Shown here: positions 4,062 to 7,987 of the stretch, one piece after another
Position numbering within the stretch: position 1 is the stretch's first letter
Layout: every line of letters starts with the position of its first letter
Assembly (NCBI RefSeq): GCF_003790525.1
Contig: NZ_CP033635.1
Source of the DNA: Escherichia coli
Lineage (GTDB): Bacteria > Pseudomonadota > Gammaproteobacteria > Enterobacterales > Enterobacteriaceae
Direction: 5' to 3' (one strand)
Length of the DNA stretch: 64,000 nucleotides
Made by a program: the position numbers and the translations under genes
The notes under the pieces: model-generated
Databases searched by the model: none
Told to the model about the DNA's origin: nothing
The model's input: only the letters and a program-made list of their open reading frames with translations

Positions 4062-5216
4062 TTACTTCAGACCGGCAGCATCGCGCAGCAGCTGCGCTTT
4101 GTCGGTTTTTTCCCACGGGAAATGTTCGCGACCAAAGTGACCGTATGCTGCGGTTTCTTTGTAGATCGGGTGCAGCAGATCCAGCATCTGAATCAGACCG
4201 TATGGACGCAGGTCAAAGAACTCACGTACCAGCAGAGTCAGTTGTTCAGAAGGCACTTTCTCGGTACCGAAAGTTTCCACCATGATAGAGGTCGGTTCAG
4301 CCACGCCGATTGCGTAGGAAACCTGAATTTCACAACGATCGGCCAGGCCAGCAGCAACGATGTTTTTCGCGACATAACGTGCTGCGTACGCTGCGGAACG
4401 GTCCACTTTTGATGGATCTTTACCAGAGAATGCACCACCACCGTGACGTGCCATGCCGCCGTAGGTATCAACGATAATTTTACGACCAGTCAGACCGCAG
4501 TCACCCATCGGGCCACCGATAACAAAACGACCGGTCGGGTTGATGAAGAATTTGGTGGCAGAAGTCAGCCATTCAGCCGGCAGAATCGGCTTGATGATCT
4601 CTTCCATTACCGCTTCTTGCAGCGATTTCTGGTCGATTTCTTCAGAGTGCTGAGTGGAAAGCACGACAGCATCGATACCAACGATTTTGCCGTCGTCATA
4701 CTGGAAAGTCACCTGGCTTTTCGCGTCCGGGCGCAGCCACGGCAGAGTGCCGTTTTTACGCACTTCAGCCTGACGCTGTACCAGACGGTGTGCATAGGTG
4801 ATAGGCGCTGGCATCAGCACGTCGGTTTCATTGGTTGCGTAGCCAAACATCAGACCCTGGTCACCCGCGCCCTGTTCCAGCGGATCGGCACGGTCAACGC
4901 CCTGGTTGATGTCAGGAGACTGTTTACCGATGGCGCTCAGAACCGCACAGGAGTTAGCGTCAAAGCCCATGTCGGAATGCACATAGCCAATTTCGCGAAC
5001 GGTGTTACGGGTGATCTCTTCGATGTCTACCCAGGCGCTGGTGGTGATTTCGCCGCCAACTAAAACCATGCCGGTTTTTACGTAGGTTTCGCAAGCAACG
5101 CGTGCTTTCGGATCCTGTTCGAGGATCGCGTCTAAAACGGCATCAGAGATTTGGTCAGCAATTTTGTCAGGATGCCCTTCAGAGACGGACTCGGACGTAA
5201 AAAGGTGTTTTGCCAT
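4062..5216 (-). CDS. metK: S-adenosylmethionine synthetase
   Basis: ORF 4062..5228; [32 protein letters not shown] matches MetK; start at internal Met. Confidence 0.95.
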
Positions 5217-5256
5217 ATTTAATATCACCTAAAGAGAATTTGGTTAGCTCAAACTG

Positions 5257-5523
5257 TTGTGTGGATTTTCTGTGGTAGCGGATCCTACCACGACTCTGCA
5301 GGTTAAAAACACTGGCAGTCTGAGTGTTAATCGGTATGGATGGATTAACATCTGGATGGCTATTTTAGGTCAGTTCTTCACCCAATTTCCACTTTTTTTT
5401 GAATCGTGTCTCATTCTGTTAAAAACGTGGCTGGAAATTTTTCCTGACAATGCTGGCATTCTGCGTATTTATCTTTTGCAATTTTCTGCCATTGTGGGGT
5501 ATAAAACGCGGCGCGCGGCTTAA
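5257..5523 (+). CDS. small hypothetical ORF in metK-speA intergenic region (position of K-12 yqgD; identity unverified)
   Basis: 88-aa ORF only; no recognisable motifs. Confidence 0.2.
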
Positions 5524-5735
5524 ATAAAAAGCACACGACGTTTCTTTCGTGTTGCCACTTCCAGCCGGGTTGAAAACAGAGTTTTGGCTTGTGGGTTCGT
5601 CTTAACAGGCGGCCGTGGAGGTGATACGAAATAATGAACCGTTGTCTGCTGCTTAACCTGTCTCACCGTTCTGGTGAAGATTCGTTCCCCGCACTCTGCA
5701 TCTCTGCTTTGCATACCTGCCGATGTTATACCCAT
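5520..5735 (-). CDS. small hypothetical ORF (position and 71-aa length consistent with K-12 yqgC; unverified)
   Basis: 71-aa ORF only. Confidence 0.25.
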
Positions 5736-5870
5736 CTCGGCGCTTCTCAGGATTCAAGAGCTGGTTACAGCTACTGAGGACTGAACAAGGGCGCTCTTGT
5801 AAAAACAAGAGTTTTCTCGTGGTTTCGCCGAACTGTCACACTTACGTTCGGTTATGTGCTTAATAATGTT

Positions 5871-6002
5871 ATGAAAAAGAAACCGGTTGCGCAGTTGGAG
5901 CGTCAGCATTCACTGCTGGAAAATCCATGTGCTTATGGGTTGTTATCGCAGTTCCAGGCTGCGATAGTCGTTAACTGTTTTACACTTAATAAAATAATTT
6001 GA
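5871..6002 (+). CDS. yqgB: small protein YqgB (43 aa) in speA leader
   Basis: Hand translation from ATG 5871: [43 protein letters not shown], stop TGA 6000..6002; ends 8 nt before speA ATG. Confidence 0.7.
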
Positions 6003-6010
6003 GGTTCGCT

Positions 6011-7987
6011 ATGTCTGACGACATGTCTATGGGTTTGCCTTCGTCAGCGGGCGAACACGGTGTACTACGCTCCATGCAGGAGGTTGCAATGAGCTCCCAG
6101 GAAGCCAGCAAGATGCTGCGTACTTACAATATTGCCTGGTGGGGCAATAACTACTATGACGTTAACGAGCTGGGCCACATTAGCGTGTGCCCGGACCCGG
6201 ACGTCCCGGAAGCTCGCGTCGATCTCGCGCAGTTAGTGAAAACTCGCGAAGCACAGGGTCAGCGTCTGCCTGCACTGTTCTGTTTCCCACAGATCCTGCA
6301 GCACCGTTTGCGTTCCATTAACGCCGCGTTCAAACGTGCGCGGGAATCCTACGGCTATAACGGCGATTACTTCCTTGTTTATCCGATCAAAGTTAACCAG
6401 CACCGTCGCGTGATTGAGTCCCTGATTCATTCGGGCGAACCGCTGGGCCTGGAAGCCGGTTCCAAAGCGGAGTTGATGGCGGTGTTGGCACATGCTGGCA
6501 TGACCCGTAGCGTCATCGTCTGCAACGGTTATAAGGACCGCGAATATATCCGCCTGGCATTAATTGGCGAGAAGATGGGCCACAAGGTCTATCTGGTCAT
6601 TGAGAAGATGTCAGAAATTGCCATTGTGCTGGATGAAGCAGAACGTCTGAATGTCGTTCCTCGTCTGGGCGTGCGTGCACGTCTGGCTTCGCAGGGCTCG
6701 GGTAAATGGCAGTCCTCCGGCGGGGAAAAATCGAAGTTCGGCCTGGCGGCGACTCAGGTACTGCAACTGGTTGAAACGCTGCGTGAAGCCGGGCGTCTCG
6801 ACAGCCTGCAACTGCTGCACTTCCACCTCGGTTCGCAGATGGCGAATATTCGCGATATCGCGACAGGCGTTCGTGAATCCGCGCGTTTCTATGTGGAACT
6901 GCACAAGCTGGGCGTCAATATTCAGTGCTTCGACGTCGGCGGCGGTCTGGGCGTGGACTATGAAGGCACCCGTTCGCAGTCCGACTGTTCGGTGAACTAC
7001 GGCCTCAATGAATACGCCAACAACATCATCTGGGCGATTGGTGATGCGTGTGAAGAAAATGGTCTGCCACATCCGACAGTAATCACCGAGTCGGGTCGTG
7101 CGGTGACTGCGCATCACACCGTGCTGGTGTCAAATATCATCGGCGTGGAACGTAACGAATACACGGTGCCGACTGCGCCTGCAGAAGACGCACCGCGCGC
7201 ATTGCAAAGCATGTGGGAAACCTGGCAGGAGATGCACGAACCGGGAACTCGCCGTTCTCTGCGTGAATGGTTACACGACAGCCAGATGGATCTGCACGAT
7301 ATTCATATCGGCTACTCTTCCGGCACCTTTAGCCTGCAAGAACGCGCATGGGCTGAGCAGCTTTATTTGAGCATGTGCCATGAAGTGCAAAAGCAGCTGG
7401 ATCCGCAAAACCGTGCTCATCGTCCGATTATCGACGAGCTGCAGGAACGTATGGCGGACAAAATGTACGTCAACTTCTCGCTGTTCCAGTCGATGCCGGA
7501 TGCGTGGGGGATCGACCAGTTGTTCCCGGTTCTGCCGCTGGAAGGGTTGGATCAAGTGCCGGAACGCCGCGCTGTGCTGCTGGATATTACCTGTGACTCT
7601 GACGGTGCTATTGATCACTATATTGATGGTGATGGTATTGCCACGACAATGCCAATGCCGGAGTACGATCCAGAGAATCCGCCGATGCTCGGTTTCTTCA
7701 TGGTCGGCGCATATCAGGAGATCCTCGGCAACATGCACAACCTGTTCGGTGATACCGAAGCGGTTGACGTGTTCGTCTTCCCTGACGGCAGCGTAGAAGT
7801 AGAACTGTCTGACGAAGGCGATACCGTGGCGGATATGCTGCAATATGTACAGCTCGATCCGAAAACGTTGTTAACCCAGTTCCGTGATCAAGTGAAGAAA
7901 ACCGATCTTGATGCTGAACTGCAACAACAGTTCCTTGAAGAGTTCGAGGCAGGTTTGTACGGTTATACCTATCTTGAAGATGAATAA
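6011..7987 (+). CDS. speA: biosynthetic arginine decarboxylase
   Basis: ORF 5999..7987; [45 protein letters not shown] matches SpeA; ATG at 6011. Confidence 0.95.

Follow-up and report, generated by a model that had tools for sequence, protein, structure and literature searches.

Upstream of metK lie three tandem 8-mers that resemble the met box, AGACGTCT, only loosely, and the question they raise is whether they make up an operator for MetJ or owe their appearance to something else. MetJ binds as one ribbon-helix-helix dimer per box, neighbouring dimers touching each other and binding cooperatively, and its co-repressor is S-adenosylmethionine (SAM), the product of the synthetase encoded by metK. 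The region was analysed within a 64,000-nt stretch of Escherichia coli DNA (the window), in which the original prediction had noted a possible array of MetJ boxes between positions 5330 and 5375. Sequence and register were found to be as noted: the metK strand reads AGCCATCC AGATGTTA ATCCATCC (that is, AGCCATCCAGATGTTAATCCATCC) at 5361..5338 (-), the three 8-mers following one another head-to-tail in an exact 8-bp register and being separated by a 121-nt gap from the ATG of metK at 5216..5214 (-). The features discussed below are collected in Table 1.

Table 1. Positions in the window of the met boxes, the genes and the control elements around the metK start region
Feature	Position	Strand	Remarks
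A8 tract	5393..5400	-	1.8-2.0 bits/column in 36 Enterobacterales
-35-like TGGAAA	5386..5391	-	Inferred; 18-nt spacer; in conserved block CTGGnAAT; weak match to TTGACA
-10 hexamer TAAAAT	5362..5367	-	Inferred metK promoter, from promoter scan; directly abuts box 1
Met box 1, AGCCATCC	5354..5361	-	5/8 matches to AGACGTCT; 5.5 bits; box 1 of the published K-12 metK array
Met box 2, AGATGTTA	5346..5353	-	5/8 matches; 6.0 bits; nearly invariant in 36 Enterobacterales
Met box 3, ATCCATCC	5338..5345	-	4/8 matches; 3.4 bits; in the published array
Conserved block ATACCGATTAAC	5326..5337	-	Directly after box 3; AtACyGrTTAAC in most Enterobacterales
metK 5′ untranslated leader, ~140 nt	5217..5355	-	Inferred from the position of the -10 hexamer
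metK CDS	4062..5216	-	Methionine adenosyltransferase; the regulated gene
yqgD	5272..5523	+	'DUF2684 domain-containing protein YqgD' in K-12; antisense across the metK -10, met boxes and leader

An operator at this place is already known, and repression of metK by MetJ has for years been described in papers and listed in regulon tables. In the compilation of Augustus & Spicer (2011, BMC Genomics 12:558, Table S1, PMC3228920), the K-12 entry for metK (b2942) is given as 'agccatccagatgttaatccatcc', with three boxes, a score of 14.97 bits and a gap of 121; the 24-mer, the number of boxes and the gap are those of the window, and the published array is thus the very site predicted rather than one located elsewhere. 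The K-12 copy lies at 3086561..3086584 and is identical; in its vicinity K-12 and the window differ at only two bases, both in the spacer between the -35 and -10 elements (K-12 positions 3086538 and 3086549). In PMC3228920, metK was among the 'known metboxes' that seeded the matrix, 119 of 122 Enterobacteria were recorded as having met boxes at metK, a MetJ operator is held to need no fewer than two adjacent boxes, and gel shifts of known E. coli operators are reported. The gene was also assigned to the core MetJ regulon by Leyn et al. (2014). In a pooled promoter-reporter screen (PMC10505187), knockdown of metJ increased the activity of the metK promoter reporter, an effect described there as recapitulating the known SAM feedback. 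The same screen found metK to be raised by the knockdown of ten different regulators; MetJ is therefore not its sole control.

To score the array, a symmetrised log-odds matrix was built, with metK excluded, on the 26 met boxes that Table S1 of PMC3228920 lists for eight other K-12 operators. With this matrix the array reached 14.91 bits (against the published 14.97), ranking first among the three-box arrays of the 64 kb window; the runner-up reached 9.59 bits. The scan, which could have returned no MetJ score at all, thus placed the site at the top of the window. In first-order Markov simulations a score of this size arose at a rate of 1.5e-6 per position, or ∼6e-4 per 400-nt upstream region, and an equal three-box score was found somewhere in 9% of random 64 kb sequences. 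The original description of the match as weak was apt as far as the score itself is concerned. In leave-one-out scoring metK was the lowest-scoring of the K-12 operators (14.9 bits, versus 18.8-30.2 bits for the others), which suggests that its repression is comparatively weak. Extending the array by a fourth met box, ATACCGAT, was rejected, this 8-mer scoring -1.9 bits and lowering the four-box total to 13.05. The score of the array is modest and inconclusive when taken alone; it is the context and the conservation that give the site its significance.

Conservation was examined at 120 loci with a conserved metK N-terminus (one genome per species), the 400 nt upstream of each being scanned with the matrix. 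The orthologous array was the best three-box match in all 38 Enterobacterales and scored at least 12 bits in 37 of them, with the typical form RGMCRTCC AGAWGKnn nnnCRTCY. Clostridia, which to our knowledge lack MetJ (an assumption made from their taxonomy), were chosen as controls on that basis; none of the 19 carried an array of at least 12 bits, and their median score was -0.5 bits. Box 1 reads AGACGTCC or AGCCGTCC in other genera, and box 3 reads ATCCGTCT, ATACATCT or ATCCATCT in relatives. Several genera possess better versions of the array, with, for example, AGACGTCC as box 1 and ATACATCT as box 3, and with scores of up to 24.6 bits; the substitutions between genera follow the met-box consensus (as in AGCCATCC, AGCCGTCC and AGACGTCC). 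Since other genera carry better boxes and the differences run along the consensus, what E. coli carries seems to be a degenerate version of a stronger array.

Three-box arrays of at least 12 bits also precede metK, at a distance of 35-150 nt, in 20 of 23 Vibrionales, where the typical form is AGACGTCT AGATGTAG AWACACCT, and in 22 of 31 Alteromonadales, whose array resembles that of Vibrionales (loci within L002-L121). The 2011 survey gives met boxes at metK in 3 of 16 and 7 of 29 genomes in the columns read as Vibrionales and Alteromonadales (PMC3228920); these lower counts are probably due to the per-box threshold used in that survey.

When 36 Enterobacterales sequences were anchored on the array and stacked without gaps, the site itself had an information content of 1.71 bits/column; the 36 nt preceding it had 1.04, the sequence beyond those 0.38, and the downstream flank 0.71. 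Within E. coli, 17 of 5424 genomes had an internal mismatch in the 48 nt that include the -10 hexamer with the boxes and the next block, compared with 234 of 5421 genomes in a 48-nt control region farther upstream, a comparison that is rough in that the local alignments were trimmed at their ends. Of 5426 complete E. coli genomes, 5425 contain the metK-speA intergenic region (782 nt, 5217..5998), several of them with 100% identity to the window. The metJ gene is located beyond the window; it, too, is carried by 5425 of these 5426 genomes. On records typed as plasmids there are two matches each to the metK upstream region and to metJ, which could stem from mis-typed replicons or from plasmids carrying large pieces of chromosome.

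The boxes are closely joined to a predicted promoter. A consensus scan of 5100..6100 found a single sigma-70-like match on the metK strand, that listed in Table 1, and in all 36 anchored Enterobacterales a TAAAAT or TAGAAT hexamer (TAnAAT) ends at the base that directly precedes box 1. Farther upstream, the conserved AAAAA core of the A tract would lie at about -45..-41 and may, from its position, be an UP-like element. Judging from the -10 hexamer at 5367..5362, metK transcription should start near 5357-5353, and the boxes would therefore occupy about -6 to +18, within the footprint of RNA polymerase. The available supplement text of Kim et al. (2012) and of Mendoza-Vargas et al. (2009) contains no start-site entry for metK.

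Explanations of these observations that do without MetJ have to be weighed. That the array is a set of three weak met-box-like 8-mers without function would agree with there being no more than five consensus matches out of eight in any box, and with the frequency at which random sequences of the size of the window equal its score. The array nevertheless tops the window and precedes a known gene of the MetJ regulon, it is kept in register in all 38 Enterobacterales and missing from the 19 Clostridia controls, and it had already been published as an operator; the conservation pattern in particular excludes chance, whose likelihood is negligible. A further possibility is that the DNA is conserved as coding sequence rather than as a regulatory site, since it is read through on the opposite strand by yqgD, in which the met boxes encode residues 23-30 (GWINIWMA). 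The gene is annotated across the region in K-12, and tblastn returned YqgD-like translations in many Enterobacterales. Against this, the longest stop-free frame across the site is at most 26 aa in at least eight species in which the 24-mer is still conserved, and in most species beyond the closest Enterobacteriaceae tblastn similarity is limited to about residues 10-45, that is, to the translated -10, boxes and next block. The same comparison spoke against intact orthologous YqgD frames throughout Enterobacterales and against synonymous-site variation inside the 24-mer. Conservation is moreover block-like, without codon periodicity, and Vibrionales and Alteromonadales retain met-box arrays of quite different sequence. 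The short frames and the confined similarity led to coding constraint being rejected as the cause of the conservation, and we regard it as very improbable; conversely, the conservation of the YqgD family may, to judge from these alignments, largely reflect that of the metK control region.

The last alternative is that what is conserved is the core promoter and initial transcribed region, or the site of another regulator, MetJ being inactive here. A candidate for such a site exists: E. coli has a perfect 8-bp inverted repeat, TGTTAATC (5350..5343)-N10-GATTAACA (5332..5325), whose TGTTAATC arm lies in boxes 2-3 and whose GATTAACA arm overlaps the last seven bases of the ATACCGATTAAC block. The ATC-N10-GAT within it resembles the core of the SahR/SamR motif (PMC4239095), and the response of metK to ten regulator knockdowns (PMC10505187) also speaks for additional regulators. 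The repeat is not maintained, however: the GTTAATCC of its left arm is replaced by GGTTTTCC in Pantoea and Erwinia, and the right arm shows no compensating change, so that neither a hairpin nor a second operator was retained as an explanation. SahR-type (SAH-responsive) regulons are, besides, reported to be absent from Enterobacteriales (PMC4239095), and an operator for SahR/SamR, an ArsR-family palindrome, was discarded on this ground and on the loss of the repeat in those two genera. The variation in boxes 1 and 3 tracks the met-box consensus, and knockdown of metJ derepresses the metK promoter (PMC10505187), neither of which fits with an inactive MetJ. Such an alternative is improbable; a further factor may act alongside MetJ. 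The published K-12 entry, the rank of the array in the matrix scan, its conservation in Enterobacterales and the response of the reporter to metJ knockdown all support what had been put forward as a mere possibility, and the feature is very probably the operator, composed of three tandem 8-bp met boxes, at which MetJ acts on the metK promoter of E. coli.

The divergent metE/metR operator of E. coli K-12, AGCCGTCC AGATGTTT ACACATCC, also has three boxes, is identical to the metK array at 19 of 24 positions and shares its start, AGCC.TCC AGATGTT; it scores 20.7-21.1 bits, however, and serves two divergent genes, while the metK array is the weakest of the regulon and serves one. The E. coli metF operator has more and better boxes than that of metK (four or five over the -10, 24.6-25 bits). 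Like those of metF, the metK boxes would overlap the core promoter, but those of metF overlap the -10 hexamer, while those of metK begin just 3′ of it and leave it uncovered. MetJ at metF has been suggested to repress by occluding RNA polymerase (bioRxiv 10.1101/254623).

For metK, the most likely mechanism would be that three SAM-bound MetJ dimers sit side by side over the region of the start site. Given its position, the bound array would either exclude RNA polymerase, as suggested for metF, or block the formation of the open complex. High SAM would then lead to less transcription of the synthetase gene, a feedback by the end product.

The predicted metK leader (5205..5357, -) folds better than shuffled sequences (-36 kcal/mol, z = -3.1). 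Within it, GTGGTAG-N6-CTACCAC (5291..5272) is predicted to form a stable hairpin, with further pairings predicted over the ribosome-binding site and the AUG, and the leader contains the conserved blocks CAGACTGCC, CCTGCA and GAGCTAAC. RNAalifold gave no consensus pairs in 13 Enterobacteriaceae metK leaders. No Rfam match (E-value ≤1) was obtained in 5100..6100, and none at the gathering score in eight other Enterobacterales metK loci; a SAM riboswitch leader was rejected, no covariance model of a SAM or SAH riboswitch matching. It is conceivable, if rather doubtful, that the A-tract, the -10, the boxes, the block ATACYGRTTAAC (about +19..+30) and the leader blocks belong to a larger control module, in which a second factor or RNA element would act beside MetJ and of which yqgD would be largely a translated shadow, not a conserved protein.

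A separate type of metK leader, 130-220 nt long, was observed in Serratia, Edwardsiella, Hafnia, Yersinia, Rahnella, Pantoea, Erwinia and Mixta (loci L108, L032, L057, L088, L023, L099, L100, L016, L114, L079, L029 and others). Leaders of this Serratia/Yersinia/Erwinia type contain the nearly invariant blocks ACTGCT, GGCTTTGCCTGAGGGGCGTTGCAGGA, GCTATGCAGT and AACCCGT, together with a predicted 8-bp pairing of CUUUGCCU with AGGUAAAG that would sequester the ribosome-binding site. This pairing was the sole helix returned by RNAalifold for 19 Yersinia-, Serratia- and Erwinia-type leaders; all but one of these sequences, 18 in number, keep it intact, and it shows no covariation. No Rfam family matches these leaders, which may contain a translational control element not described so far.

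The finding has little significance beyond correct annotation. What the locus illustrates is that a real operator was recognised without tools, from the sequence alone, and that the yqgD annotation lies antisense over conserved regulatory DNA. For the cell, repression of metK by MetJ closes a loop in which SAM limits the making of its own synthetase.
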